A program made the position numbers and the translations under genes. This document shows positions 20,402-33,626 of a stretch of DNA of 33,626 nucleotides, one piece after another. The notes beneath the pieces are model-generated. The model did not search any database and was not told where the DNA came from. It saw only the letters and a program-made list of their open reading frames with translations. Origin of the DNA: Acidimicrobiia bacterium (GTDB taxonomy: Bacteria > Actinomycetota > Acidimicrobiia > Spongiisociales > JAOTWH01); assembly GCA_041621915.1 (NCBI GenBank), contig JBFJZV010000003.1, positions 1 through 33,626 of the forward strand, written 5' to 3'. How positions within the stretch are numbered: the first letter of the stretch is position 1; each line of letters starts with the position of its first letter.

Positions 20402-21314
20402 GGCACACTTCTGCGGTCGTGCGGGGAAGGGTCAGCTCGAACGCCGCTCCGGCCCCCGCCGAGGGCACTGTGGTGAGCGTGCCGCCCTGGGTCGCGGCGA
20501 GTCGGCGAGCGATGTAGAGGCCGAGCCCGGTGCCCGAGGCCGAACCTTTGACTCCTCGGTCGAAGATCTTGCCGGCGAGCGCCGCGTCGATGCCGGGGCC
20601 GCGGTCCGCCACGCGTACGACGGCGGTGCGGCCCCGGAGCTCGGTGGAAACCGTCACTGGCGCGCCGGGCGCGTGCCGGTGGGCATTGTCGAGCAGGTTC
20701 CGCACGATCTCGGCGACCACCTCGGGCGAGCCGTGGGCGGTGGTGGCCGGGTCGATGCCGGCGCGCACCTCCTGGCCGCGCAGCCGCGCGGCTTCGATGG
20801 CGGGCTGCAGCGGAAGCTCGAGCGAGAAGTCCGCCGGGCGGCGGCCCGCCGCGCCACCATCGAGGAGCCGGTGGAGCGACGCCACTTCGGCGCGGATGAC
20901 CTCGACCGCGGTGTCCCAGCTCAGATCGCCGTGGTCGCGCCGGCGGGCGGCCGCATACACGGCTAGCTCGATGGTCGATAGCGCCGAGCGGGCTTCATGG
21001 GCGCGCTCCTCCCACTCGGCCTCTGCCGCCTCCGACTGGCGCCGCCACCGGTGGGCCTCCCGGGCCCAGCGCAGGGCGGTCGCCGCCTGGTGCCGGGTGG
21101 AGCGCTCGAGGACGGCGGCGCCGCCCAGCAGCGCGAAGAGCAGCGTGAGCAACCGCAGCGTCCCCACCACCGTCGGTCGCAGATCGAGGTCCGGGCGTAG
21201 TGAGGCGCCCGCCACCTCTGCGGCGACGAACGCCGCGAGCGTCAGCGCCACTGCCAGCAGGAACCATTGGTCCCGCCAGGCCGCCGATCTACGTCGCGGC
21301 TCGCCGATGTCCAT
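20391..21314 (-). CDS. Sensor histidine kinase (two TM helices, HisKA-like plus HATPase_c)
   Basis: H-box AHEARSAL, N-box NLLDNA, DRGPGI, F-box IFDRG and GTGLGL. GGAGGAG RBS. Confidence 0.93.
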   Translation of the reverse strand: MDIGEPRRRSAAWRDQWFLLAVALTLAAFVAAEVAGASLRPDLDLRPTVVGTLRLLTLLFALLGGAAVLERSTRHQAATALRWAREAHRWRRQSEAAEAEWEERAHEARSALSTIELAVYAAARRRDHGDLSWDTAVEVIRAEVASLHRLLDGGAAGRRPADFSLELPLQPAIEAARLRGQEVRAGIDPATTAHGSPEVVAEIVRNLLDNAHRHAPGAPVTVSTELRGRTAVVRVADRGPGIDAALAGKIFDRGVKGSASGTGLGLYIARRLAATQGGTLTTVPSAGAGAAFELTLPRTTAEVCRAA

Positions 21315-21347
21315 CAGCTCCTCCCCGGGTGACTAGTCCCGTCGTGA

Positions 21348-22067
21348 TTACGTTCCGTAGTCAGGCTCCTGGAGTTTGTCGGATATCAGCGCTCGAAACT
21401 TGAATGCGATGGCGGCTGCCGCCAGCCCGGCGAGCACCCCGGCGGCGTACCAGGCGGGGAGCGACGTGCCCAGTGCGGGCCGGAGCGGCTCCGTGGCCAG
21501 CCGCACCGCCGCGGCCGCGGCGAGGGCGACGCCGCCGAGTACCCCCGGCGGCGGGAACCTGCGGCGGGCGACCAGCGCGGCGAACGCAGCGATCACGAAC
21601 AGCGCGGCCGCATATAGCTCGACCGGGTGGCGGGTGATGTCGCTGCCGGGCAGCGCATACGCCCACGGGAGGTCGGAGGGGGTGCCCAGGCAGGCGTCGC
21701 GGAACAGGCAGCCGGCGTGCCAGCCCGCCAGGCCCGCCAGCGCGGCTGCAGCCGCAGCATCGGCCAGGCGGGCCAGTTCGCGTCGGGCGAGGACGGCGAA
21801 CGCGGCGAGCGCGCCGATCGACGCCCATACCGTGTCGACGCCGCCCCGCACCACGAGGATGTCGCCAGGCCGGGTGAGCGGGTTGGTGCCGGCGAGGATC
21901 ATCGCCGCCAGCCGCCCCGCCACTAGGCCGGCCAGGGCTGCAGCGATCCCCGTGTCCCACACGTCGCGGCTGCAGTCGGCGGCGTTGCCCCGCCGCGCCT
22001 CCCACCGCACCACTCCATAGAACGCGATTGCAGCCACCAACGCAGCCCACAGCAGCGTGAACTCCAT
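21348..22067 (-). CDS. Divergent prolipoprotein diacylglyceryl transferase (Lgt)-family membrane protein
   Basis: Multi-TM protein with GRL, LAD, CLGTPSDLPWA and RHPVELY (Lgt RHPxQLY). HAGCL occupies the position of RxGN/C. Confidence 0.72.
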   Translation of the reverse strand: MEFTLLWAALVAAIAFYGVVRWEARRGNAADCSRDVWDTGIAAALAGLVAGRLAAMILAGTNPLTRPGDILVVRGGVDTVWASIGALAAFAVLARRELARLADAAAAAALAGLAGWHAGCLFRDACLGTPSDLPWAYALPGSDITRHPVELYAAALFVIAAFAALVARRRFPPPGVLGGVALAAAAAVRLATEPLRPALGTSLPAWYAAGVLAGLAAAAIAFKFRALISDKLQEPDYGT

Positions 22068-22636
22068 CAGCGGGCCAGCAGCTCGTCGATCTGCAACGCT
22101 AGCGTGCGCTCGTCGATGATCCCGTTGTGCGTCTCGACCAGCTCGCCGCCGGCGGCGAAGAAGAAGGTGATCGGCACCCCGCGCCCGCCGAGGTCGGCGG
22201 GCACCCGTGACGGGCGGTCGAAGTAGTGCTCGAAGCCCCCGAGCCCGTACTCGTCGATGAACTCACGGGCCGGGCCCTGGCTGTCCCGCACCGCCACCCC
22301 CACGAAGCGCACGTCGTCGCCGGCGTCGGCGTGGGCGGCCCGCAGCAGCGGCGCCTCGGACCGGCAAGGCGCGCACCACGATCCCCACACGTTCACGACG
22401 ACCGGCTGCTTGGACGCGGCGAGCAGCGCGCGCATCCCGACCGCGTCGATCTCCGGCAGGGCGCCAGCGGGGGCGGTGCCGGAGCCCGGGGAACACGCGG
22501 CCAGGAGGACGAGCAGGAGCGCGAAAGCTCTTCCTCCTCCGGCTGAGCGGGGGAGGTGGGCCGGCGCCGCAGGCGCCGGGTCGGAGGGGGCGGTTCCGGG
22601 CGCGCTCGCACTCGCCGCAGGGGGAGCACGGGTCAT
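22067..22636 (-). CDS. TlpA-family thiol:disulfide oxidoreductase lipoprotein
   Basis: Lipobox [18 protein letters not shown] and GVPITFF. ATG 22636 overlaps the hisIE stop (ATGA). Confidence 0.88.
22531..22591 (-). repeat. REP-like palindromic repeat, copy D, in frame inside the TlpA signal-peptide region
   Basis: CCCCCTCCGAC-[CCGGCGCC TGC GGCGCCGG]-CCCACCTCCCCCGCTCAGCCGGAGGAGGAA, the same architecture as B and C. Confidence 0.72.
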
Positions 22637-23232
22637 CGTGCACGCTCCGCGAGGACGCCGAGCACCTCGCGAGGGGCCAGGCCCTGTTCCGCCAGCAGCA
22701 CCAGCAGGTGGTAGATCAGGTCGGCGGCCTCCTCGGTCGTGCGCCGGGGGCCCTCGTCGCGGGCGGCCTCCACTACCTCGCCAGCCTCCTCGAGCACCTT
22801 GGCGCCCACCGCCTCGACACCGCCTGCCAGCAGGCGGGCGGTGTAGGAGCCTTCCGGTCGCTCGGCGGCGCGGGAGGCGATCGTTGCCCACAGCGCCTCC
22901 AGCGAGGCGAAGCCCTGCAAGAGTTCGTCGCCGAAGCACGACCGGCTGCCGGTGTGGCAGGCGGGGCCCGCCGGGCGGGCGGAGATCAGCAGCGCGTCGC
23001 CGTCGCAGTCGAGCCGCACGTCCACCAGCTCGAGCGTGTTGCCGCTCGTCGCGCCCTTGCGCCACAGCTCGTCGCGGGAGCGGCTCCAGAAGTGGACCTC
23101 GCCGGTGTCGAGCGTCGCCGCCAGCGCCTCCCGGTTCACGTAGGCAACCATCAGCACCTGCCCGGAGCCCTCGTCCTGGACGACCGCAGGCGCCAGGCCG
23201 TCCGGACCGTAGGACGGGTCGTCGGGCGTCAC
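22633..23232 (-). CDS. hisIE: Bifunctional phosphoribosyl-AMP cyclohydrolase / phosphoribosyl-ATP pyrophosphatase
   Basis: [42 protein letters not shown] and EAADLIYH. Confidence 0.96.
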
Positions 23233-24026
23233 GCCACATCCACCTGGCGCACGGGCAGCCCGGCCGCTGCCATGCCGGCTTTGAGGTCGGCGATGGAGAT
23301 CTCCGCGCGATGGAAGATCGACGCCGCCAGCACGGCGTCGGCGCCGCCTTCGGCGACCGCCGCCACGCAGTCGCCGATGGTCCCCGCGCCGCCCGAGGCG
23401 ATCACCGGCACCGTCACCGCGTCACCCGCGGCGCGCAGCAGCGCGGTGTCGTAGCCCGCCTTGGTGCCGTCCTGGTCCATCGAGGTGAGCAGGATCTCGC
23501 CGGCGCCCAGCGCCGTGCCCCGTCGCGCCCACTCGACGGCGTCGAGGCCGGTGGGGGTGCGGCCACCGTTGACCACGACTTCCCAGGTGGCTTGACCGCT
23601 GGCGCGAGTATCGCCGCCTGTGCCTCGGCAACGGGCATCGATCGCCAGCACGACGCACTGGCTACCGAACGCGGCGGCGCAGCGGGCGATGAGGTCGGGG
23701 TCTCGGACGGCCGCCGTGTTCAGCGAGACCTTGTCGGCGCCGGCGCGCAGCACGGCCCGCATGTCGTCGACGCTGCGGACGCCGCCGCCGACCGTCAGCG
23801 GCACGAACACGTTCTCGGCGGTGCGGTGGACCACGTCCAGCATCGTGCCGCGCCCCTCCGGGGAAGCGGAGATGTCGAGGAAGACGATCTCGTCGGCACC
23901 CTCGGCCGCATAGCGGGCGGCGAGCTCCACGGGGTCGCCTTCGTCGACGAGGTCGACGAACCGCACCCCCTTCACCACCCTCCCGGCGGACACGTCGAGG
24001 CACGGGATGATCCGCTTACGCAGCAC
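23229..24026 (-). CDS. hisF: Imidazole glycerol phosphate synthase cyclase subunit
   Basis: [31 protein letters not shown] and PVIASGGAG. Confidence 0.97.
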
Positions 24027-24636
24027 GGCGCGCCTCCCGGCACTCGGCGACGAAGTTGCCGAGCACCCGGAGCCCGGCGCCGGCGCTCCGCTCCGGATGG
24101 AATTGCACCCCATATCGGCGGCCGTCATGGACGGCCGCCGAGAAGACAGAGCCGTGCTCGGCCGTGCCGGTCACGATGGCCGGGTCCGTAGGGACGGGAG
24201 CGTACGAGTGCACGAAGTAGAAGGGCTCGCCGGACGAGATGCCCTCGAACAAGGGGTCGCGACGGAGCAGCGTGACGTCGTTCCAACCGATGTGGGGCAG
24301 GCGGGGAGCATCGCGGAGGCGCTCCACTCTTCCCGGCAGCAGCCCCAAGCACTCGGCGCCGTCCTCCTCGCTGGTCTCGAAGAACAGCTGGAGGCCTACG
24401 CAAATGCCCAGCAGCGGCCCATCCCACTCCCGCAGCGGCTCGACGAAGCCTGCGTCGCGGAGCCGCGCCATGGCGGCACCCGTCGAGCCGACTCCCGGTA
24501 GGACGATCCCGGCGGCGCCTTGCAGTTCGCCCGGGCCGGAGGCGACCGCCACATCGGCTCCAGCTCGGGTCAGGCCCTGGGCTATCGACACGAGGTTGCC
24601 GGCGCCGTGGTCGACGACGGCGATCGGGACGCTCAC
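24016..24636 (-). CDS. hisH: Imidazole glycerol phosphate synthase glutaminase subunit
   Basis: [25 protein letters not shown] and GVQFHPERS. Confidence 0.97.
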
Positions 24637-25217
24637 ACTGCGCCCTTGGTCGAAGCCACGCCCTCCCGACGCTTGTCGGGCGCCACGGCCGCCCGCAGCG
24701 CCCGGGCGAGCGCCTTGAAGGCTGCCTCGGCCACGTGGTGATCGTTGCGACCCGACGCTTGAAGGTGCAGCGTGATGCCCGCGGTGCGAGCGAGCGACTC
24801 GAGCGCATGGGGGATCATCTGCGTCGACAGTGCCCCGATCCGCTCGGCCCGGAGCTCCACGTCGATCTCGGCGTACGGCCGCCCGCCGACGTCGACCGCG
24901 CATCGGGCGAGCGCCTCGTCCATGGGCACGGCCGCGTCGCCGAAGCGGGCGATGCCGGACCTGTCGCCCAGCGCCTCTGCCAGCGCTTCGCCGAGCACGA
25001 GCGCGGTGTCCTCGATTGTGTGATGGTCATCGACCTCGGTGTCCCCGGTGGTGTCCACCGTGAGGTCGAACAGGGCGTGGTGGGCGACCGAGCCGAGGAG
25101 GTGGTCGAAGAACCCGACTCCGGTCTGCACCTGCGCCGTGCCGGTGCCATCCAGGTCGATCGTGATCCGCACCTCGGTCTCGGCGGTCTTGCGGTGCCGC
25201 TCGGCGCGACGGCTCAT
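24633..25217 (-). CDS. hisB: Imidazoleglycerol-phosphate dehydratase (monofunctional)
   Basis: RKTAET, TGVGFFDH, DDHHTIED, VPMDEAL, NDHHVAEAAFKA and STKG. Confidence 0.97.
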   Translation of the reverse strand: MSRRAERHRKTAETEVRITIDLDGTGTAQVQTGVGFFDHLLGSVAHHALFDLTVDTTGDTEVDDHHTIEDTALVLGEALAEALGDRSGIARFGDAAVPMDEALARCAVDVGGRPYAEIDVELRAERIGALSTQMIPHALESLARTAGITLHLQASGRNDHHVAEAAFKALARALRAAVAPDKRREGVASTKGAV

Positions 25218-26266
25218 GGCAGGTTCCTTTCGATGGCGTCCAGCAGGCGGTCGTGATCTGGTGGGGTGCGCACGGTGAACCGCAGGTAGCCGGTCAGCAT
25301 CCCGGCCTTGAAGCTGCGGACGACCAGTCCCTCGCCCATCAGCGCCCGCTCCAGATCGACGGCGTGCGGTCCCACCTCGCAGAGGAGGAAGTTCGTGTCG
25401 GAGGGCAGCACCCGGAAGCCGGCGCGGGCCAGCATCGCGCCTAGCCGGCTGCGCTCGGCGGTGATCGCGGCGACGTTGGCCTTGGCGATCTCCGGCTCGG
25501 CGAGCGCTCGGATGGCGAGCGCAGCCGACACCGCCGAGATGCTGCCCGGCGGGCGCAACGCCTCGAGGCGCGCGGTCAGTTCGGGCGAGGCGAGCGAGTA
25601 GCCGACCCGGATGGAGGCGAGCCCGAATGCCTTCGACATCGTGTGGAGCACCACCAGGTTCGGGTAGCGCTCCAGCCACGATGCCCAGCGGTCGCCGGTG
25701 AACTCGGCGTAGGCGGCGTCCAAGACGACGACCCCACTCGCCGCCGCGACGATCTCCTCGATGTCGGCGTCGGCGGCCCGCTGCCCGGTGGGGTTGTGGG
25801 GCTGGCAGAGGTACAGGAGGTGGCTGCGGACGGCGAGGTCGGCCAGGCCGGCGGCTGGGAGCGGGAAGTCGGGCGCCAGGCGGTCGACGGTCCGGAACTC
25901 GGCGGACTGCTGGGCGGCGGCAATGCGGTAGAGGGAGTACGCCGGGAGGTCGGCAGCCGCGACGCCGCCAGGGTCGAGCCATGCCTTGGAGGCGATGAGG
26001 ATGAGCTCGTCGGCGCCGGCGCCGACCATCACCTGCTGTGGCTCGACACCGGCGTAGGCGGCTGCGGCCTCCTTGAGGGGGCGGTAGTCGGCGGCGGGGT
26101 ATTCCGAGGCGCGGCGGGTTGCGGCGGCGGCTTCCTCCGCCACCCACGACGGTGCCTGTGGGGAGGTGTTGTGGTCGAAGCGGATCACCTCGTCCGGCGA
26201 GATGTCGGCGCGGGCTGCGATCTCGGCGGTGCCGGGCTGCCACTGGTATACGGGAAGCCCGGTCAT
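25214..26266 (-). CDS. hisC: Histidinol-phosphate aminotransferase
   Basis: GADELI, PHNPTG, LDAAYAEF and TMSKAFGLASIRVGY (PLP lysine). Confidence 0.95.
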   Translation of the reverse strand: MTGLPVYQWQPGTAEIAARADISPDEVIRFDHNTSPQAPSWVAEEAAAATRRASEYPAADYRPLKEAAAAYAGVEPQQVMVGAGADELILIASKAWLDPGGVAAADLPAYSLYRIAAAQQSAEFRTVDRLAPDFPLPAAGLADLAVRSHLLYLCQPHNPTGQRAADADIEEIVAAASGVVVLDAAYAEFTGDRWASWLERYPNLVVLHTMSKAFGLASIRVGYSLASPELTARLEALRPPGSISAVSAALAIRALAEPEIAKANVAAITAERSRLGAMLARAGFRVLPSDTNFLLCEVGPHAVDLERALMGEGLVVRSFKAGMLTGYLRFTVRTPPDHDRLLDAIERNLP

Positions 26267-27543
26267 GACGGCTCCTCTCGAAAGCGGACTTCGACGGCCA
26301 TCCGGTGGGCGGTGAGACCCTCGGCGGTAGCCAGCTCGCCGATCGTCGCCCGCAGTGCGGTGAGCCCCGCCTCGGTCAGCGTCTGCACCTGCCGCCACGA
26401 TCCGAAGTCCTCGACACCCAGCGGGCTCATCGCCGCGGCGGTGCCGCCGGTGGGGAGCACGTGGTTGGCGCCGCTTGCGTAGTCGCCCACCGGCTCGGGC
26501 GCCCAGCCGCCGACGAACACCGACCCGGCGGCGGTGAGGCGCTTGGCGTCGGTCTCCGGGTCGGCGGTGAGCAGGGTGACGTGCTCGGCGGCGTACTCGT
26601 CGGCGAAGGCAAGCGCGGCGTCGTGGTCGGGGGCGAGCACCAGCCACCCGTGGTCCTCCAGCGCCCGCTCCAGCACGTCCCGCCGCTCCAGCCCGGGGAG
26701 CAGGGCGTCGATCTCGACCGCGACGGCCTCGAGCAGGCCCGCGTCGGCGGTGACCAGCACGGCGGGGGAGTCGGGTCCATGCTCGGCCTGGCACAGGAGG
26801 TCGGCGGCGGCGTGGAGGGGGTCGGCCGAGCCGTCGGCGACCACCACCACCTCCGACGGGCCGGCCGGCATGTCGATGTCGACCTCGCCGAACACCGCCA
26901 GCTTGGCGGCCGTCACGTACTGGTTGCCCGGCCCGACGATCTTCTGCACTCGCCTCACCGTCTCGGTCCCATAGGCGAGTGCCGCGATGGCCTGCGCCCC
27001 GCCCATGGCCCACATCTCCCCGACGTCGAGCATGTGGGCGGCACCGAGCAGCGCCGGAGCCAGCACCCCGTCGGTGTCCGGGGCGGCCACGACGATGTCC
27101 TCCACCCCGGCGACTTGGGCGGGGATCACGGTCATCACCAGCGTCGACGGGTAGGCCGCCTTCCCGCCGGGCACGTACGCGCCGATCCGCCGCAGTGGCG
27201 CCCACCGCCGCTCGACGACGACCCCGGGCTCCACCTCCAAGCGCATGTCCTGCGGAGCCTGCGCCTCGTGAAACCGCCGGATGTTCCGCTCGGCGTGCGC
27301 CCGCGCACGCCGAAGCTCCTCCGAGAGCGAATCCCAAGCTTGGGCCATCTCCGCAGGATCGACCCTCCGAAGCCCACCCCCGTACCGCTCCGCAGCAGCG
27401 CGCACTGCTTCATCCCCACCCTCACGAACAGCTTCGACGATGGCTGAAGCCCGCGCACGGATGTCCGATTCGGGGACAGCCGACCGACGCAGGAGGTCGG
27501 CCCTCTCGGCTCGCCCGAGCGCAGCGAGGGTGAGACGCTTCAT
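26263..27543 (-). CDS. hisD: Histidinol dehydrogenase
   Basis: YVPGGKAAYPST, GGAQAIAALAYGT, GPGNQYV, IDMPAGPSE, QAEHG and GDYASGANHVLPT. Confidence 0.97.
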   Translation of the reverse strand: MKRLTLAALGRAERADLLRRSAVPESDIRARASAIVEAVREGGDEAVRAAAERYGGGLRRVDPAEMAQAWDSLSEELRRARAHAERNIRRFHEAQAPQDMRLEVEPGVVVERRWAPLRRIGAYVPGGKAAYPSTLVMTVIPAQVAGVEDIVVAAPDTDGVLAPALLGAAHMLDVGEMWAMGGAQAIAALAYGTETVRRVQKIVGPGNQYVTAAKLAVFGEVDIDMPAGPSEVVVVADGSADPLHAAADLLCQAEHGPDSPAVLVTADAGLLEAVAVEIDALLPGLERRDVLERALEDHGWLVLAPDHDAALAFADEYAAEHVTLLTADPETDAKRLTAAGSVFVGGWAPEPVGDYASGANHVLPTGGTAAAMSPLGVEDFGSWRQVQTLTEAGLTALRATIGELATAEGLTAHRMAVEVRFREEPS

Positions 27544-28403
27544 GGGATGAACTGCTCGATCGGGAGCACCAGGATGCCCGTGGCGCCCAGCGCGCGGAGC
27601 TCGGGCAAGATGCTCCACAGCCGGCTGGCGTCGACGACCGCTCGCACCGCGAGCAGGCCGTCGTCGGACAGGGGAACGATCGTCGGGTTCTCCAGGCCCG
27701 GGTCGAGGCCTTCCAACGCGCCGGCGGCCTCCGCCGGCACCTGCATGACGAGGTAGCGCTTGCGGCGGCCGGCGGCCACGGCCCGCAGCATCGTGGCGAC
27801 CGTGTGGATCTCGTGGTGGCGCCGCTCCAGCGCCTGGGGACCGGCGACCAGCACCGCCTGAGAGTCGAGCAGCGTCTCGATCTCCCGCAGCTCGTTCATC
27901 AGCAGCGTGCTTCCGCTGGACACCAGGTCCACGATGGCGTCGGCCAGCCCGAGCTTGGGCGCGACCTCCACCGAGCCGTGCAGGTGCACCAGCTCGATCG
28001 TGATGCCCTTGTCACGGAAGAAGCCCTCGACCACCCGCGGGTGGGAGGTGGCGATCCGCTGGCGGCGCAGGTCCTCGATCGACGTCACCGGGTCGTGGCG
28101 GGGTACGGCTACCGCCAGCCGGCACCGCCCGTAGCCGAGCTCCGCCAACACCTGGACATGCGCGTCGGCTTCGGCGACGAGGTCGGCGCCGCTGATGCCC
28201 AGCTCTGCGGTGCGGTCTGCGACCATCTCGGGGATGTCGTCGGTGCGGACGAACAGCAGGTCCATCTCCACGTTGCGCACCGGCACTGTGAGGGAGCGCG
28301 ACGTCAGCTCGAAGCTGAGCCCGGCGGCGCGGAGGAAATCGACGGTGGGCTCCTGCAGGCGTCCCTTGTTGGGGACTGCCAGGCGGAGGCGGCGCGCGGT
28401 CAC
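27540..28403 (-). CDS. hisG: ATP phosphoribosyltransferase, long form
   Basis: LAVPNKGRL, RTDDIP and GSVEVAPKLGLADAIVDLVSSGSTL, plus a C-terminal regulatory domain (ENPTI). Confidence 0.96.
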   Translation of the reverse strand: MTARRLRLAVPNKGRLQEPTVDFLRAAGLSFELTSRSLTVPVRNVEMDLLFVRTDDIPEMVADRTAELGISGADLVAEADAHVQVLAELGYGRCRLAVAVPRHDPVTSIEDLRRQRIATSHPRVVEGFFRDKGITIELVHLHGSVEVAPKLGLADAIVDLVSSGSTLLMNELREIETLLDSQAVLVAGPQALERRHHEIHTVATMLRAVAAGRRKRYLVMQVPAEAAGALEGLDPGLENPTIVPLSDDGLLAVRAVVDASRLWSILPELRALGATGILVLPIEQFIP

Positions 28404-28479
28404 GTGCCGGCCCTGGACGGGGTCGGAATGCAGCAGCGACGCTGGGAGGGCGGAAGTGGCACGGTGCGGGAGCCTCTGG

Positions 28480-28554
28480 TCAGCAGCGGCCGTGATGAAC
28501 CGCCGCGTGCGCGTGGCGCCGGGTGGGCCGCGGGAGCGTGGCGACGGTGTTCAT
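28480..28554 (-). promoter_or_regulatory. Candidate his operon leader peptide MNTVATLPRPTRRHAHAAVHHGRC (24 aa)
   Basis: Four His codons in the last 11 residues, directly upstream of hisG. TAACCT -10-like box at 28571-28566 and a C-rich spacer before hisG. Confidence 0.6.
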
Positions 28555-28568
28555 GCCTGCCATCGAGG

Positions 28569-30263
28569 TTAGTCGGCGGCCCGCCGCATCGACCAGTTCG
28601 CCACCAAGGTCCGCAGCCCGGCCAGCTCGCCGCTCAGCGGCCGATCCTCCAACAGCGGCGGGCTGACCTCCCGCACCGCTTCGTAGACCTGGCGCGTGCC
28701 TGCGCCGAGCCGGGCGGCGACGGAGACGCGGTCGCTCACGTGACCGGCGAACGCCTCGTCGTCGATCGAGCCAAGGGTCCGCCAGTCGACTGCTTGGGCG
28801 GCGACGAGCAGCTCCACGGCCAGAACGGCCTGGGCACGGCTGAGCATCGTCCGCAGCTTGCGGGCCGCAGTGGCCGACATCGACACGTGGTCCTCGATGT
28901 TGGCGGAGGTCGGGATGGAGTCGACCGAAGCCGGGTGTGCCAGCACCTTGTTCTCCGACACCAGTGCCGCGGCCGTGTAATGGGCCACCATCGCGCCCGA
29001 GTTGAGCCCGCCTTGGGGCGCCAGGTTGCGAGGCAGGCCCCCGTTGTGGTCGGGGTCGAGCAGCATCTGGGTTCGCCGTTCGGCGACGTTGGCCAGCTCG
29101 GCGACCGCGATGGCGGCCAGGTCGGCCGCCATCGCCACCGGCTGGCCGTGGAAGTTGCCGGCCGAGAACGCCCGCCGCGCCCCGCCGTCGTAACCAGCGG
29201 GCCAGTTGGCGGCGAACCCGAGGTCCCACGGGTCTTCGCCAGGGAAGAAGAGGGGGTTGTCGGTGGCGGCGTTGATCTCGATGCCCACGACCCGGCGGGC
29301 GTAGCCGAGGGCGTCGCGGCTGGCGCCGTGCACCTGTGGGGCGCAGCGGATCGAGTAGGGGTCCTGCACCTGGCCGCGGCTGTCGACGAGAGTGCTTCCC
29401 TCGACGAAGGAGCGGATGGTGGCGGCGCTGGCGACCTGTCCGGGATGGCCGCGAGCGTCCTGGGCCAGCGGGTCGAAGGCGCGAGCGGAGCCCGCCAGGC
29501 CCTCGAGCGTCAGTGCCGCAGCCGCGTCGGCGGCGTCGGCGAGCCGCTCCCCATCGTGGACGGCCAGCGCCAGCAGCGCAACCGAGACGGCGGTGCCGTT
29601 GATCAGGGCCAGGCCCTCTTTCGGCGCCAGCTCCGGTGGGTCGGCCCCGAGGTCGCCCGCCAGGCCGGCGGCGTCGCGCCACTCGGGGTGGCCGGCCACC
29701 GTGTAGCGGCCTTCGCCGATCAGCACCGCGAAGAGGTGGGCCAGCGGGGCGAGGTCGCCGCTGGCGCCCAGCGAGCCGTGCAGCGGGACCAGCGGCGCGA
29801 CGCCGCGGCCGATCATCGCCTGGAGCGTCTCTACCAGCACCGGGCGCACGCCGGAGTGGCCGCGCAGGAACGTGTTGAGCCGGATCACCAGCGCCGCCCG
29901 CACCACCTCGGCGGGGAGGTAGTTGCCCGGGTCGTCGAGGTCGGCGGTGTCGCCGATGCCCACACAGTGGCTCAGCAGCAGCCGCCGCTGCAGCTCGGCG
30001 AGGTCGTCGGGATCGAGGGGAACGTCCTTGAACGACCCGAACCCGGTCGTCACCCCGTACTCCAGGGCCGGGGCCCGGCCGGCAGCGCCGAACGACTCCC
30101 GGTACGCCGACAATGCCGCATCGACCTCGCGACGCCCTGCCATTACTCGCTCGACCGCCTCGGGCGTGATCTCCACTTGCCGGCTCGGGTCGCGCGCAAT
30201 GGCTACGAGGTCATCGACTGTCAGAGAGGTGCCGTCGAGGACGAGGGGGTTCCCGTCAGCCAC
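28569..30263 (-). CDS. hutH: Histidine ammonia-lyase (MIO-dependent aromatic amino acid lyase)
   Basis: YGVTTGFG, LLLSH (HAL-type selectivity pair), GSLGASGDLAPL (MIO-forming ASG), KEGLALINGT, QDPYSIRC, GNFHG and EDHVSM. Confidence 0.92.
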   Translation of the reverse strand: MADGNPLVLDGTSLTVDDLVAIARDPSRQVEITPEAVERVMAGRREVDAALSAYRESFGAAGRAPALEYGVTTGFGSFKDVPLDPDDLAELQRRLLLSHCVGIGDTADLDDPGNYLPAEVVRAALVIRLNTFLRGHSGVRPVLVETLQAMIGRGVAPLVPLHGSLGASGDLAPLAHLFAVLIGEGRYTVAGHPEWRDAAGLAGDLGADPPELAPKEGLALINGTAVSVALLALAVHDGERLADAADAAAALTLEGLAGSARAFDPLAQDARGHPGQVASAATIRSFVEGSTLVDSRGQVQDPYSIRCAPQVHGASRDALGYARRVVGIEINAATDNPLFFPGEDPWDLGFAANWPAGYDGGARRAFSAGNFHGQPVAMAADLAAIAVAELANVAERRTQMLLDPDHNGGLPRNLAPQGGLNSGAMVAHYTAAALVSENKVLAHPASVDSIPTSANIEDHVSMSATAARKLRTMLSRAQAVLAVELLVAAQAVDWRTLGSIDDEAFAGHVSDRVSVAARLGAGTRQVYEAVREVSPPLLEDRPLSGELAGLRTLVANWSMRRAAD

Positions 30264-31689
30264 GGCCCTGCTCGGCGAGGAGCTTCCTCACCTCGGCAAC
30301 GAGATCGGCCCGGGGCACTTCCCGCTGGCCGGGCCTGGCTGCGAGCCACTCCTCCCGATCGTCGACTTCGTCGGCGATCGCTTTGCCCGCCTCCATCTCC
30401 TTGAGGGTGACGACGCCGGACTCGTGCTCGTTGGAGCCGTACAGGATGCTGACCGGCACGCCGACCCGGTCGGCGTAGCGGAGCTGCTTGCCGAGCCCGC
30501 CTGCGTCGCCGAGGTAGTACTCGGCGTTGATGCCGGCTCGCCGCAACTCGTAGGTCATCGCCAGGTACTCGCCCTCCAGCGCCGGGTCGAGGCGGGTGAC
30601 CAGAACCTGCGACGTGGAGCGGCGCCCGCCGACCTTGCCGAGATGCACGAGAGCGGCCAGCAGCCGGTCAACGCCCAGCGACGCGCCGGTGGCCGGGATG
30701 TCCTCGCCGAGGAAGCGGCGGACGAGCTGGTCGTAGCGCCCGCCGCTGAACATCGACCCGAACTCGGGAGCATCGAGCAGCTCCATCTCGAACACCGGGC
30801 CCGTGTAGTAGGCGAGGCCGCGGGCGATGCTCGGGTCGAGGACCACCCGGTCGTCGCCGTAGCCGAGTGCGGTGAGGTGCCCGGAGATGCGGGCCAGCGC
30901 GTCGATCGGGCCGGCGGCGTGGTCCAGCCCGGAGAAGAGGTCGCGAAGCTGGTCGAGCACCGAGTCGCGGTCGTCGCCTCGGATGTCGAGGTACTGCCGG
31001 ATCTCGGCGACGGTGGCGGCTCCGAGGCCGAGGCCGTCGATGACGTCGCCCGACTCGTCCTTGTACCCGGTCGTCAGTTCGGCGGCCACCCGGTCCCAGC
31101 CGACCTTCTCGAGCTTGTCGAGCACGCGGAACACGTCGATGCCCTGTCCGGCGGGGATGGCGGCGTAGTCGAGCAGGAGGTCGAGCACGGCCCGGCTCGA
31201 CACGCGTACCTGGTAGCGGTCGACGCCGAGGCGGTCGAACGTGTCGCACATCCCGGTGATGATCTCGGTGTCGGCCACGTCGCTCTCGGTGCCGACGGAG
31301 TCGAGGTCGAACTGGGTGAACTCGCGGAAGCGGCCCTTGTCGGGCTTGTCGGCCCGCCACACCTGGGCAAGCTGGTAGCGGCGGAACGGGCGCGGCAGCT
31401 CCTGGTACTGGGCGACGAGGCGGGCGAGAGGCACCGTCAGGTCGAACCGGAGCCCGAGCTCGCCTTCGACCTTGCGGCTGGTCACCGTGAAGATCGACTG
31501 CTGCGCCTCCTGGCCGGCGGAGCCACTCAGCACGTCGAGGTACTCGATCGCCGGGGTGCTGATCGGGACGAAGCCGTACGACTCGTACACCGCCTTGGCG
31601 GCGCCGACGATGCGGTCCTGCTCGATCATCTCCTCGGGGAGCAAGTCGCGCAGGCCGCCAAGCAGGCGGGGGGTCACGAGATCAGACAT
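30256..31689 (-). CDS. hisS: Histidine--tRNA ligase (alphaproteobacterial/eukaryote-like type)
   Basis: LRFDLTVPLAR, motif 2 WRADKPDKGRFREFTQFD, ARGLAYYTG, GGRYD and SLGVDRL. The real start is ATG 31689; the longer ORF-track call runs through the tRNA. Confidence 0.96.
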   Translation of the reverse strand: MSDLVTPRLLGGLRDLLPEEMIEQDRIVGAAKAVYESYGFVPISTPAIEYLDVLSGSAGQEAQQSIFTVTSRKVEGELGLRFDLTVPLARLVAQYQELPRPFRRYQLAQVWRADKPDKGRFREFTQFDLDSVGTESDVADTEIITGMCDTFDRLGVDRYQVRVSSRAVLDLLLDYAAIPAGQGIDVFRVLDKLEKVGWDRVAAELTTGYKDESGDVIDGLGLGAATVAEIRQYLDIRGDDRDSVLDQLRDLFSGLDHAAGPIDALARISGHLTALGYGDDRVVLDPSIARGLAYYTGPVFEMELLDAPEFGSMFSGGRYDQLVRRFLGEDIPATGASLGVDRLLAALVHLGKVGGRRSTSQVLVTRLDPALEGEYLAMTYELRRAGINAEYYLGDAGGLGKQLRYADRVGVPVSILYGSNEHESGVVTLKEMEAGKAIADEVDDREEWLAARPGQREVPRADLVAEVRKLLAEQGRG

Positions 31690-31695
31690 GCGTCG

Positions 31696-31767
31696 TACCG
31701 AGGGGGAGAATCGAACTCCCATCTCTGGATCCACAATCCAGCGCTCTAGCCATTGAGCTACCCCGGC
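31696..31767 (-). tRNA. tRNA-His (GUG), no encoded G-1, discriminator A73, CCA not encoded
   Basis: Cloverleaf folded by hand: acceptor GCCGGGG/CCTCGGT+A, D-arm GCTC/GAGC, anticodon arm CTGGA-TTGTGGA-TCCAG, T-arm GGGAG-TTCGATT-CTCCC. Confidence 0.97.
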
Positions 31768-31777
31768 GCAGCGGTGC

Positions 31778-31783
31778 AGGATA
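31778..31783 (-). promoter_or_regulatory. Putative -10 box (TATCCT) for the tRNA-His-hisS-hutH unit
   Basis: TANNNT lies 10 nt upstream of tRNA position 1. No convincing -35 at canonical spacing. Confidence 0.5.
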
Positions 31784-31820
31784 ACGTGCGGCTCCTGCGG
31801 CAATAGGAGCGTACCGCCCC

Positions 31821-32564
31821 GTGCAAGTGATACCCGCGGTCGACGTGCTGGACGGGAGTGTGGTCCGGCTGCTGCGCGGCGATTTTGACGAGGTGACTCG
31901 GTACGGGCGCGACCCGGTCGCAGCAGTCCAGCGCTGGGTCGAGGAGGGCGCCGCACTGGTGCATGTCGTAGACCTGGACGGCGCCCGCGGCGGGGAGAGC
32001 GACGTGGCGCTGTGGCAGCGCCTGGGCGCGTCCGCGCTGCCGTTCCAGGTCGGCGGCGGCCTGCGGACCGTCGCCGCCGTCGAAGGCGCGGTCGCCGCCG
32101 GTGCGGCACGGATAGTCGTCGGCACCGCGGCGGTCTGGGACCCGGGGCTGCTCGCAGAGATGGTCGCCGCAGTCGGCGCGGCGCCGGTCGTGGCCGCAGT
32201 CGACGTGCGCGGTGGGCTGGCCGCCGGCGCCGGCTGGCGAGACCAGGGGCGGCCGCTCGAAGAGGTGCTGGCGGGAGTCGGGGGCGCCGGGGTGGGCCGC
32301 CTGCTCGTCACCGCCATCTCCCAGGACGGGACGATGGAGGGACCCGATCTCGGGCTGCTCGCCCGGGTACGGGCGCTTGCGCCCGAGTCGGCGCTCATCG
32401 CGTCCGGCGGGGTGGGGACGCTTGCGCATTTGCGCAGCCTGGCCGCTTCCGGCCTCGCGGAGGCGGCGATCGTGGGCCGGGCCCTCTACGAGGGGGCGTT
32501 CAGCCTGGCGGAGGCGCAAGCCGCCCTGCGTACAGGGCCACCGCCACCGCAGTCGCCAGGTTGA
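31821..32564 (+). CDS. hisA: HisA/PriA-family ProFAR isomerase
   Basis: QVIPAVDVLDGSVVRL, HVVDLDGA, QVGGGLRT, TAISQDGTMEGPD, IASGGV and IVGRALY. Confidence 0.95.
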   Translation: MQVIPAVDVLDGSVVRLLRGDFDEVTRYGRDPVAAVQRWVEEGAALVHVVDLDGARGGESDVALWQRLGASALPFQVGGGLRTVAAVEGAVAAGAARIVVGTAAVWDPGLLAEMVAAVGAAPVVAAVDVRGGLAAGAGWRDQGRPLEEVLAGVGGAGVGRLLVTAISQDGTMEGPDLGLLARVRALAPESALIASGGVGTLAHLRSLAASGLAEAAIVGRALYEGAFSLAEAQAALRTGPPPPQSPG

Positions 32565-33174
32565 GGCTCGACACGCCGGGGCGCATCGGGATCGCCACCA
32601 CCCGGTCGGCTCGGGCCATGAGCTCGCACGACAGGCCGCGCCGTTCCGACCCGAACGCCAGGACGGGGCGTTCGGGCAGCGCCGTCAACGGCTCGCCGGC
32701 GGGATCGAACGCCACGAGCGGCCGTCCGGACGCGGGCACCTCGTCGATCCTCGCCACCGGGACCGCGTAGTGGAGGCCGGCCGCGCCTCGCAGCGCGTTG
32801 GCGTGCCACGGGTCGAGGGTGCCCGAGGTGAGCACGGCGGCGGCGCCGGCAGCCGAGGCGACCCGGACCACCGCCCCCACGTTGCCGTGGCGGGTCGGGT
32901 GCTCGAGGAAGACCACCGGGTCAGGGCCCGCCACCGCGGCGGCGATGTCGACGGAAGGTGGGTCGGCCTCGGCGACCACTCCGCGCCCCTCGTCGTCACC
33001 GTCCTGGACGAGCTCGGCGAGCCGGTCCAAGAGGTCCGGGGCGAGGTCGGCGGCCAGGGCCAGCAGCGCGTCCCGGTCGCTGGTCGAGGCCGAGCGGATG
33101 GTCGCCCCGAACCGCAGCGCATGCTTCACGGCGTGGAACCCCTCGAGCCGGACCGTCAGGCGTCCCGCAGCCAT
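32500..33174 (-). CDS. TrmH/SpoU family RNA methyltransferase
   Basis: SPOUT motifs HGNVGAVVR, FGSERRGL and IPMRPGVSSLNLATA. Confidence 0.9.
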   Translation of the reverse strand: MAAGRLTVRLEGFHAVKHALRFGATIRSASTSDRDALLALAADLAPDLLDRLAELVQDGDDEGRGVVAEADPPSVDIAAAVAGPDPVVFLEHPTRHGNVGAVVRVASAAGAAAVLTSGTLDPWHANALRGAAGLHYAVPVARIDEVPASGRPLVAFDPAGEPLTALPERPVLAFGSERRGLSCELMARADRVVAIPMRPGVSSLNLATAVAVALYAGRLAPPPG

Positions 33175-33626
33175 AGCGCCAGAGGCGGGTTCGCCGACAC
33201 GGCCACACCGCCGGCGACCTCCTCGGTGAGCGCGAACCCGGCGATCTCGCCGCTCACCAAGAAGGGCGCAACCCGGGGCTCGGGCCCGAACACGCCCGCC
33301 GAGATCACCTCGTCGCCGACGATCGCCCAGAGCTGGTACGTCCGGTCGGCCCCGAGCGCAGGAAGATCGGCGTCGAGGTAGCCGACGCCGTCGGGCAGCA
33401 GCGTGATGCTGGCGGCCACCGGCTCGCCGTCGGGGGTGGCGAGCGGAAGCACCTCGGCACCGGGGGTAGTGACCGCCGTGGCGTAGGCGTCGTCGACCGA
33501 GGCCCGATCGGAACGGAGGGCGGTTGCCCCCACCACCGCCACCGCCGCGATCGCCGCCGCCGCCGCCAAACCGCCGAGCCACACGGCCGGGCGGGGGAGG
33601 CGGCGAATCCCGGTGGCGGGCACCAG
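33156..33626 (-). CDS. Anti-sigma factor (RskA-like), partial, N-terminus outside the window
   Basis: TM helix followed by LPAL..DRTYQLWAI...SAGVF...FALTEEVAGG, typical of RskA C-terminal domains. Confidence 0.82.
   Translation of the reverse strand: MVPATGIRRLPRPAVWLGGLAAAAAIAAVAVVGATALRSDRASVDDAYATAVTTPGAEVLPLATPDGEPVAASITLLPDGVGYLDADLPALGADRTYQLWAIVGDEVISAGVFGPEPRVAPFLVSGEIAGFALTEEVAGGVAVSANPPLALWLRDA

Follow-up and report, generated by a model that had tools for sequence, protein, structure and literature searches.

Histidine tRNAs (tRNA-His) are marked by a guanosine at position -1 (G-1) facing C73, and few rules of translation are more conserved than this identity. A delta-G-1 subgroup of the alpha-proteobacteria departs from it, with A73, a G1-U72 pair and no G-1 in the tRNA and a histidyl-tRNA synthetase (HisRS) that reads the anticodon, A73 and U72; the pair of Caulobacter crescentus is titled divergent and orthogonal, and the alpha-proteobacteria are the only bacterial exception to G-1/C73 named in the available portion of that report (PMC3064791). 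The cytosolic HisRS of Arabidopsis (At3g02760) possesses an N-terminal domain of about 400 amino acids (aa) that resembles histidine ammonia-lyase (HAL) and lacks the ASG triad, a domain said to occur only in plants (PMC7564348). In lactobacilli, hisS accompanies histidine decarboxylase (hdc) genes, in a cluster titled horizontally acquired (PMC5313534), and tyrS is part of the tyramine cluster of Enterococcus durans (PMC3315439). The locus described here lies in a stretch of 33,626 nucleotides (nt), hereafter the window, which is positions 1 to 33,626 of the forward strand of contig JBFJZV010000003.1 in the assembly GCA_041621915.1 of an Acidimicrobiia bacterium (Actinomycetota). It consists of a tRNA-His gene, hisS (encoding HisRS) and hutH (encoding HAL), together called the cassette, and adjoins the genes of histidine biosynthesis. 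The best explanation, with a probability of about 0.6, is that tRNA-His-hisS-hutH was acquired horizontally by the ancestor of the genus and that HutH is a working HAL coupled to hisS. The cassette and the spacer that follows it are:

31695..31767, minus strand: tRNA-His(GTG) gene (ARAGORN; Rfam RF00005, 71 bits; sequence)
30256..31689, minus strand: hisS, 477 aa (TIGR00442, PF13393, PF03129)
30256..30263, minus strand: 8-nt overlap of the hisS TGA stop codon with the hutH GTG start codon (sequence)
28569..30263, minus strand: hutH, 564 aa (TIGR01225; PF00221)
28404..28568, minus strand: hutH-hisG spacer, 165 nt (sequence)

A preliminary description of this DNA had reported that the start of hutH overlaps the stop of hisS, and the sequence confirms it: the hutH start codon occupies 30263-30261 and the hisS stop codon 30258-30256, with the 8 nt GTGGCTGA in common. 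That description overlooked the tRNA-His gene, the 165-nt spacer, and the presence of hutU and hutI elsewhere in the genome. The two genes are separate open reading frames (ORFs) in different frames and not one polypeptide, and the same 8-nt geometry is seen in a second genome of the genus (locus L018); it is the arrangement that would be expected with translational coupling. The discriminator of tRNA-His is 6 nt upstream of the hisS ATG, a spacing that makes a shared transcript for tRNA-His and hisS almost certain, and the 5' end of the tRNA is 53 nt from hisA.

To judge from their sequences, both proteins are intact. HisS scores 331.1 bits in a profile search with TIGR00442 (cut-off 286.75) and possesses a class II core domain (PF13393, residues 12-343) and an anticodon-binding domain (PF03129, residues 361-449). 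R120, Q126, D128, R290, Y294, Y295, G316-G317-R318-Y319-D320 and R342 are invariant in 13 rows of an alignment, the GGGRYD motif being the conserved G316-D320 region; these residues presumably make up the histidine-binding and class II motifs. The best full-length structure matches are chains named 'Histidine--tRNA ligase, cytoplasmic' (human type, E ~1e-47), and the matches to several other solved HisRS chains are partial (E 1e-21 to 1e-26). The locus resembles systems of HisZ and short-form HisG in that a HisRS-family gene is next to hisG, and in two Planctomycetota loci (L022 and L023, below) a HisZ-like gene follows hutH; it differs in that the window protein has an anticodon-binding domain and exceeds the hisS cut-off, and HisG is of the long form. 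A HisZ identity of the synthetase was ruled out by the presence of PF03129, by a TIGR00443 score of 189.2 bits (below the cut-off of 271.65), and by the HisG_C domain of HisG, which in its long form would not need a HisZ partner.

HutH matches PF00221 over its full length (564.8 bits) and TIGR01225 over residues 7-562, at 550.9 bits a small margin above the equivalog cut-off of 539.15. The motifs from which the enzyme had been described as intact are all present: Y69 in YGVTTGFG, the pair S98-H99, and the triad A167-S168-G169 in GSLGASGDL. Positions invariant over an 18-row HAL alignment include Y69, S98, H99, S168, G169, N222, Y303, R306 and E457; the Y69 loop and S98-H99 presumably have the catalytic and selectivity roles that set HAL apart from phenylalanine and tyrosine ammonia-lyases. 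HutH meets the definition of the HAL family, and both formation of the 4-methylideneimidazole-5-one (MIO) group and deamination of histidine are predicted.

The cassette is foreign to its lineage and sits where related genomes have a different gene. The window is contig C3 of a metagenome-assembled genome (MAG) designated G000 (74.6% complete, 271 contigs, 2.4% contamination); a second MAG of the same genus, G001 (71% complete), holds the contig seen as L018. The comparison with relatives covered 30 genomes from the same genus, family and order; omission of the unpublished G011 and G022 among them changes no conclusion. Outside the genus, 27 relatives possess a hisS of 391-442 bits (TIGR00442) and 25 a hutH of 620-680 bits (TIGR01225); in the same scan, G000 and G001 have a hisS of 331 bits and a hutH of 548 and 523 bits, respectively. 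Identity between window and relatives is 24-33% for HisS and 40-46% for HutH, and it is 70-88% for HutU and 47-73% for HisG, HisD and HisA. The sole relative with the divergent pair and the cassette order is G001/L018, whose HisS and HutH are 83% and 68-72% identical to those of the window. Conservation of the adjacency in relatives had been named as a test of its meaning: outside the genus hutH was near none of 28 hisS loci and hisS near none of 28 hutH loci, 22 of the latter having hutU or hutI within 1.5 kb, and the adjacency does recur within the genus and in other phyla. A tblastn search of G000 with the canonical HutH and HisS of a relative returned the cassette genes only.

The genes on either side of the cassette are:

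31821..32564, plus strand: hisA, divergent, upstream of the cassette (PF00977; TIGR00007)
27540..28403, minus strand: hisG, long form with C-terminal regulatory domain (PF01634 and PF08029; TIGR00070 and TIGR03455)
26263..27543, minus strand: hisD (Pfam and start positions)
25214..26266, minus strand: hisC (Pfam and start positions)
24633..25217, minus strand: hisB (Pfam and start positions)
24016..24636, minus strand: hisH (Pfam and start positions)
23229..24026, minus strand: hisF (Pfam and start positions)
22633..23232, minus strand: hisIE (Pfam and start positions)

The order hisG-D-C-B-H-F-IE downstream of hutH, all on the minus strand, stands as first described, with Pfam support, and the start and stop codons of neighbouring genes in this series overlap by 4 to 11 nt. 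In 11 of 11 loci outside the genus, the gene directly upstream of hisG encodes a TrpR-like protein (PF01371, 105 aa, 86.5 bits), beyond which a divergent hisA is found in seven. The TrpR-like gene occupies L251:2352-2669 (minus strand) and the corresponding site in L250 and L252-L260, and in G003 its stop codon overlaps the hisG start. No match to it was found anywhere in G000, and the cassette holds its site in the window and in L018, so a likely regulator of the his operon was likely lost when the cassette arrived. The cassette inserted into the control region between the divergent hisA and hisG. Its location in the his cluster goes back to a single insertion within one genus and is an accident of where the cassette landed; the proposal that synthesis, charging and overflow form a histidine homeostasis module in one locus is not supported, given a single-genus insertion that replaced a TrpR-like gene.

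It is vanishingly improbable that the cassette is an artefact of assembly or binning in which a fragment from elsewhere became attached to an Acidimicrobiia contig. The MAG is fragmented and includes the contamination given above, and the cassette genes are most like Planctomycetota genes; against this, the second MAG has the identical order hisA<>tRNA-His-hisS-hutH-hisG, the junctions hisG/spacer/hutH, hisS/hutH and tRNA/hisA are each bridged by zero-difference contigs from runs of different studies, and the G+C content of the cassette region is 0.695-0.73 versus 0.71-0.74 in the flanks. Because of the bridging contigs and the second MAG, an assembly chimera is ruled out for practical purposes.

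The tRNA-His of the window has G1·U72 and A73, its genomic base -1 is C, and neither G-1 nor CCA is encoded. G1·U72 and A73 without a conserved G-1 are shared by all five cassettes in which hisS precedes hutH (the window, L018, L022, L023 and G699), base -1 being C, A, G and T in the last four, respectively. Genes for tRNA-His with the same identity set are found directly upstream of hutH-linked hisS at these positions:

L018:1331-1404: tRNA-His
L022:4105-4178: tRNA-His
L023:4051-4124: tRNA-His
L261:1488-1564: tRNA-His

The D-loop comprises 8 nt in the window and L018 and 9 nt in L022 and L023. A BLAST search of the relatives with the cassette tRNA returned mostly tRNA-Asn and other tRNAs, and the tRNA-His of relatives was seen in two genomes only (G005 and G009), both times in the canonical G-1/C73 form. 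No tRNA-His was found in G427, G428 or G554, and Thg1 (PF04446) was not found in G000. The cassette is like the Caulobacter pair in that G-1 is not encoded, A73 and G1·U72 are present, and the tRNA gene lies beside that of a divergent HisRS; it is unlike that pair in that the hosts are Acidimicrobiia and Planctomycetota, the D-loop of the window has 8 nt versus 9 with U20a, and linkage to HutH is not described for alpha-proteobacteria in the available portion of the report (PMC3064791). The likeness is one of tRNA features, and charging independent of G-1 by the cassette HisRS is predicted at most. Orthogonality would let an incoming tRNA and HisRS coexist with a resident pair and then replace it.

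Such a replacement very probably took place, and it would have extended to tRNA-His, HisRS and HutH alike. In G000, the cassette encodes the only PF00221 protein, the only full HisS and the only tRNA-His among 50 tRNAs, and G001 likewise has a single full hisS, in assemblies that are 74.6% and 71% complete; the cassette thus appears to supply the only tRNA-His, the only HisRS and the only HAL of the genus. The lost natives would have been a canonical G-1/C73 tRNA-His, a canonical HisRS, and a hutH beside hutU or hutI. In keeping with the preliminary description, no hutU or hutI is in the window: hutU (TIGR01228, 927 bits) and hutI (TIGR01224, 433 bits) are on contig C159 with an unrelated ORF between them, and are the only urocanase match and the only full hutI match of G000. 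The intervening ORF (L016 = C159, 4327-5775, plus strand, about 480 aa) has a weak cyclase-like match and is neither hutG nor hutF. In G000, hutH is not clustered with hutU and hutI, no hutH is upstream of the hutU on C159, and neither a remnant of a native hutH upstream of that hutU nor udk synteny in common with relatives was found. A search of the rest of the genome for hutU, hutI and hutG, suggested earlier, thus yielded the first two and not the third. The sole hutG candidate, of the arginase family on C36, was rejected as an agmatinase (TIGR01230, 198.1 bits versus 174.3). Since the genome has both hutU and hutI, and both appear to be of vertical descent, the dedicated urocanate-producing route once suggested for this locus is disfavoured.

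The link between hisS and hutH is found well beyond this genus. Loci were sampled by pattern seeding or best match, and the frequencies given here are not population estimates. A search with the window HutH gave 80 loci, and in 9 of them a HisRS gene adjoins hutH. The order tRNA-His-hisS-hutH is present outside the genus in three Planctomycetota genomes (L022 and L023 among them), and the order hutH then hisS in L020 (KSB1), in L069, L083, L095 and L097 (Planctomycetota), and in L094 (titled Candidatus Peribacteria; Peregrinibacteria, candidate phyla radiation). In L018, L022, L069 and L097, the two genes share 4 to 8 nt at the stop codon of the first and the start codon of the second. In a sample of 301 Planctomycetota genomes, 164 possess a HutH at E <= 1e-60; among the best 30 of the 164 loci, hisS is adjacent in the three that score highest and hutU in six others. 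The linked hisS is the sole full-length hisS of G426, G427 and G428, and in G426, G427, G428, G699 and G554 the linked gene is the only PF00221 gene and a single urocanase is encoded elsewhere, which with G000 makes six of six genomes. No published account of bacterial hutH-hisS linkage was found in a literature search.

Several features of these loci may be recorded. A HisZ-like gene follows hutH in L022 (7725-8705, plus strand, with a 4-nt overlap with hutH) and L023 (7740-8723, plus strand); it matches PF13393 only, and TIGR00443 at 268.7 bits, just below the cut-off of 271.65. In the resulting order, tRNA-His-hisS-hutH-hisZ, hutH again touches a histidine biosynthesis gene. Conserved proteins of about 700 aa without Pfam match precede hutH-hisS in L069 (3014-5968), L083 (2898-5810) and L095 (3649-5802), all on the plus strand. 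In L094 (960-6088), a stretch of 5 kb contains hutH along with a divergent hisS and two tRNA-His genes of the canonical form, and ORFs called with code 11 look fragmented; L094 may use another genetic code. Crude ORF calls gave hutH-hisS fusions in L069, L083 and L097, and on inspection of L069, L083 and L095 the ORFs are separate.

The idea that the adjacency would track the type of HisRS is rejected. Among 401 sampled Actinomycetota, 26 (G000 included) possess a HisRS like that of the window at E <= 1e-50, and in the other 25 loci neither hutH nor a tRNA gene is within 1.5 kb of hisS. Because of these 25 loci, and because G186, of the same order, combines this HisRS type with a canonical tRNA-His, the type of HisRS predicts neither the type of tRNA nor the link to hutH.

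In trees made without an outgroup, by FastTree (156 rows) or a short IQ-TREE search (43 rows), all 11 linked HutH rows fall into one group of 15 rows (support 94 in FastTree and 93 in IQ-TREE), inside which a subclade of 11 rows has support of 98 and 95. The HutH proteins of the window, L018 and G699 form a group (99), and those of the relatives make up a clade of their own (99). In the tree of HisRS proteins, that of the window is placed with L018, L022, L023 and L218 (99), and the HisRS proteins of the relatives are across the deepest branch. The two trees group the cassettes alike and therefore indicate a shared history within the cassette. Of the four rows of the linked HutH branch that have no hisS nearby, L025 and L073 follow nadC and a gene of the biotin ligase family, and L019 has a transporter and an alanine racemase as its neighbours.

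These results bear on whether the linkage has any function. An ordinary catabolic hutH could have stood beside hisS in the donor and been carried along with it, the native copy then being lost by drift. Consistent with this, within Actinomycetota the cassette was found in this genus alone (none of the 25 other loci with this HisRS type has a hutH close by), most sampled HutH genes adjoin hutU or hutI or stand alone, and, hutU and hutI being present, ordinary catabolism suffices. Linkage without function is nevertheless quite improbable, for hisS and hutH stayed together while the Acidimicrobiia and Planctomycetota proteins diverged to about 46-50% identity, their linkage takes either gene order and extends to at least four phyla, their stop and start codons overlap, all 11 linked rows belong to one branch, and the two proteins are fused in eukaryotes. 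The link would instead be old and under selection.

HutH is more probably than otherwise the working first enzyme of histidine catabolism, made with HisRS at a housekeeping level, where it would drain surplus histidine and deliver urocanate to the HutU and HutI encoded elsewhere. It is read as a working HAL because its active site is intact, it is the sole HAL, and hutU is elsewhere in six of six genomes. As in a classical hut operon, HutH fits the family definition and hutU and hutI are in the genome; unlike in such an operon, hutH is away from hutU and hutI, belongs to another branch of HutH, and is accompanied by no hutG or hutF found in the genome. The equilibrium of the HAL reaction is far towards urocanate. 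This counts against a histidine-forming enzyme, one version of the highly improbable alternative that the linked HAL is not a histidine degrader at all and acts on another imidazole substrate or on a product of HisRS (histidyl-adenylate or His-tRNA). The linked branch is indeed separate from the HutH of hut operons and has insertions of its own, and an ergothionase is among the solved relatives (185.8 bits); but HutH of the window is above the TIGR01225 equivalog cut-off and has retained the S-H pair and all positions that are invariant in HAL, the full his biosynthesis cluster leaves no need for a salvage route, and in six of six genomes urocanase is encoded and the linked HutH is the sole HAL.

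The nearest published analogy to a synthetase encoded with a HAL may be the biogenic-amine clusters, as far as the available portions of those reports go. In both cases, the gene of an enzyme that uses up a free amino acid neighbours the gene of the synthetase for the same amino acid; the clusters consist of a decarboxylase, an antiporter and an extra synthetase, whereas here a lyase is joined to the sole synthetase and a tRNA, with no transporter (PMC5313534, PMC3315439). The preliminary description had also suggested that plant HisRS has a HAL-like domain, and At3g02760 is indeed such a protein in the available text of PMC7564348, besides which a literature search found no publication on HAL-HisRS fusion. 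Plant cytosolic HisRS resembles the window in that one locus joins a PF00221 module to a eukaryote-like HisRS, and its order, HAL then HisRS, is the gene order of the bacterial loci L020, L069, L083 and L095; it differs in that the window has two ORFs in the order hisS-hutH and a HAL with ASG and all catalytic positions, which the plant domain lacks (PMC7564348).

In a search with one fusion protein, 90 of the 120 matches listed combine PF00221 with PF13393. The sources named include Klebsormidium, Riccia, Brassica and Nannochloris and the oomycetes Phytophthora, Lagenidium, Plasmopara and Peronospora, so that with oomycetes and green algae the range of HAL-HisRS fusions is wider than the plant-only distribution stated in the available text of PMC7564348. 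Among the 90 fusions in the matches listed, 29 keep an MIO-like triad (CSG, SSG, ASG or variants) and GNFH, and 25 of these 29 the tyrosine loop as well; the named plant and oomycete fusions are without the MIO-like triad, GNFH and tyrosine-loop motifs. The fusions that look intact (P0012-P0043) are about 950-1070 aa long, and P0038 carries a EukProt transcript identifier. Fusions with an intact HAL may be bifunctional HAL-HisRS enzymes.

From these fusions a different role for HutH might be drawn, in which HisRS and HutH form a physical complex as a Rosetta-stone pair, with HAL serving mainly to bind histidine, as a partner or scaffold by which the supply to HisRS is gated or sensed, catabolism secondary, and the fusions the covalent form of the contact. 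HAL-then-HisRS fusions are widespread in the matches listed, their domain order is mirrored by bacterial hutH-hisS pairs with overlapping codons (L069 and L097), the HisRS and HutH trees group the cassettes alike, and in the 18-row alignment the linked HutH branch carries insertions absent from canonical HutH. The persistence of fusions without the MIO triad in plants and oomycetes further suggests a contact that is not catalytic (PMC7564348, available text). Such a complex, the main rival to the catabolic account, is nonetheless unlikely. The HisRS parts of all fusions fall inside the eukaryotic HisRS clade (100), so the fusions may be independent of the bacterial pairs; neither HutH tree gives the fused HAL parts a firm place among the bacterial HAL proteins; L021, part of an ordinary hut operon, has the branch-specific insertions too; and the bacterial linked HAL keeps all catalytic residues and is the sole HAL, with hutU elsewhere, so that catalysis would be retained either way. 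A complex prediction with full-length HutH and residues 1-350 of HisRS, from separate alignments, gave a score of 0.00, which is evidence neither way. Of the earlier suggestion of a HisRS-HutH partnership, the genetic part is thus upheld by linkage in distant phyla, in both orders and within one HutH branch, and the physical complex is hypothetical. A bolder version, in which tRNA-His(delta-G-1), HisRS and HAL constitute a transferable and self-contained module for histidine decoding that is orthogonal to and displaces the resident system, with HAL bound to HisRS as a histidine sensor conserved up to the eukaryotic fusions, is distinctly unlikely.

If HutH is instead the working HAL favoured here, translational coupling of hutH to hisS would mean that the enzyme that charges histidine and the enzyme that drains it are produced together. 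Textbook accounts give the relative affinities of HisRS and HAL for histidine and name urocanate as an inducer of the Hut enzymes. HisRS, with the higher affinity, would keep priority, HAL, with the lower, would remove surplus only, and the urocanate that HAL forms would pass to the rest of the Hut pathway, which would be separately regulated. The worry that expression of hutH together with the his genes would form a futile cycle assumes co-transcription over the 165-nt spacer. As a result of the insertion, hisG may now lie downstream of transcription from the cassette. A scan of 27400-32700 found no sigma-70 promoter and no intrinsic terminator, by a consensus that may not suit this organism; the sole Rfam match (E <= 0.1) in 21000-33626 is tRNA-His, with no T-box or leader; and the spacer folds no better than shuffled sequences (z-score +1.57). 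A small ORF in the spacer, from 28563 (or 28554) to 28480 on the minus strand, has four histidines in 24-27 codons, and its homologue in L018 has six in 26; it may encode a histidine leader peptide or be what is left of the lost TrpR-like gene.

Several points weigh against horizontal acquisition of a working, coupled HAL as the full account. An approximately unbiased (AU) test supports a foreign origin, since it rejects placement of the HutH of the window and L018 inside the relatives' HutH clade (p 0.004), but the group tested was chosen after the tree was seen, and the linkage counts come from the sampling described above. Four of the 15 rows of the linked HutH branch have no hisS nearby, and one of these four (L021) is in an ordinary hutU-hutI-hutH operon. 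Neither hutG nor hutF was found in G000, leaving the Hut pathway incomplete as assembled, and with both MAGs incomplete, native hisS, hutH and tRNA-His are 'not found' and not proven absent. Co-expression of hisS and hutH is suggested by gene geometry, and the logic of pool buffering by textbook kinetics. Removal of surplus histidine leaves the fusions of eukaryotes and the HAL domain of plants without the triad unexplained, and these favour a structural or regulatory contact (PMC7564348, available text).

Two further features of the window touch none of these questions. After hisIE, a thioredoxin-like gene and lgt (21348-22636, minus strand) continue the series with overlapping or abutting codons, in an operon-like manner. 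ARAGORN calls a 98-nt tRNA-Ile(GAT) at 33492-33589 on the minus strand, which is without an Rfam match at E <= 0.1 and is probably false.

The G1·U72/A73 identity set is present in Acidimicrobiia and Planctomycetota, packaged with its synthetase, and appears to have replaced the native system of one lineage in one step, which, if true, is a natural example of the swapping of an orthogonal tRNA/synthetase pair. The intact HAL that travels as a constant third passenger would be a counterpart in bacteria of the still puzzling HAL-like domain of plant HisRS, and that puzzle becomes a testable question, namely whether HisRS and HAL bind each other and what effect the contact has. Even under the ordinary reading alone, the first enzyme of the Hut pathway can be uncoupled from its pathway and wired to a housekeeping gene.

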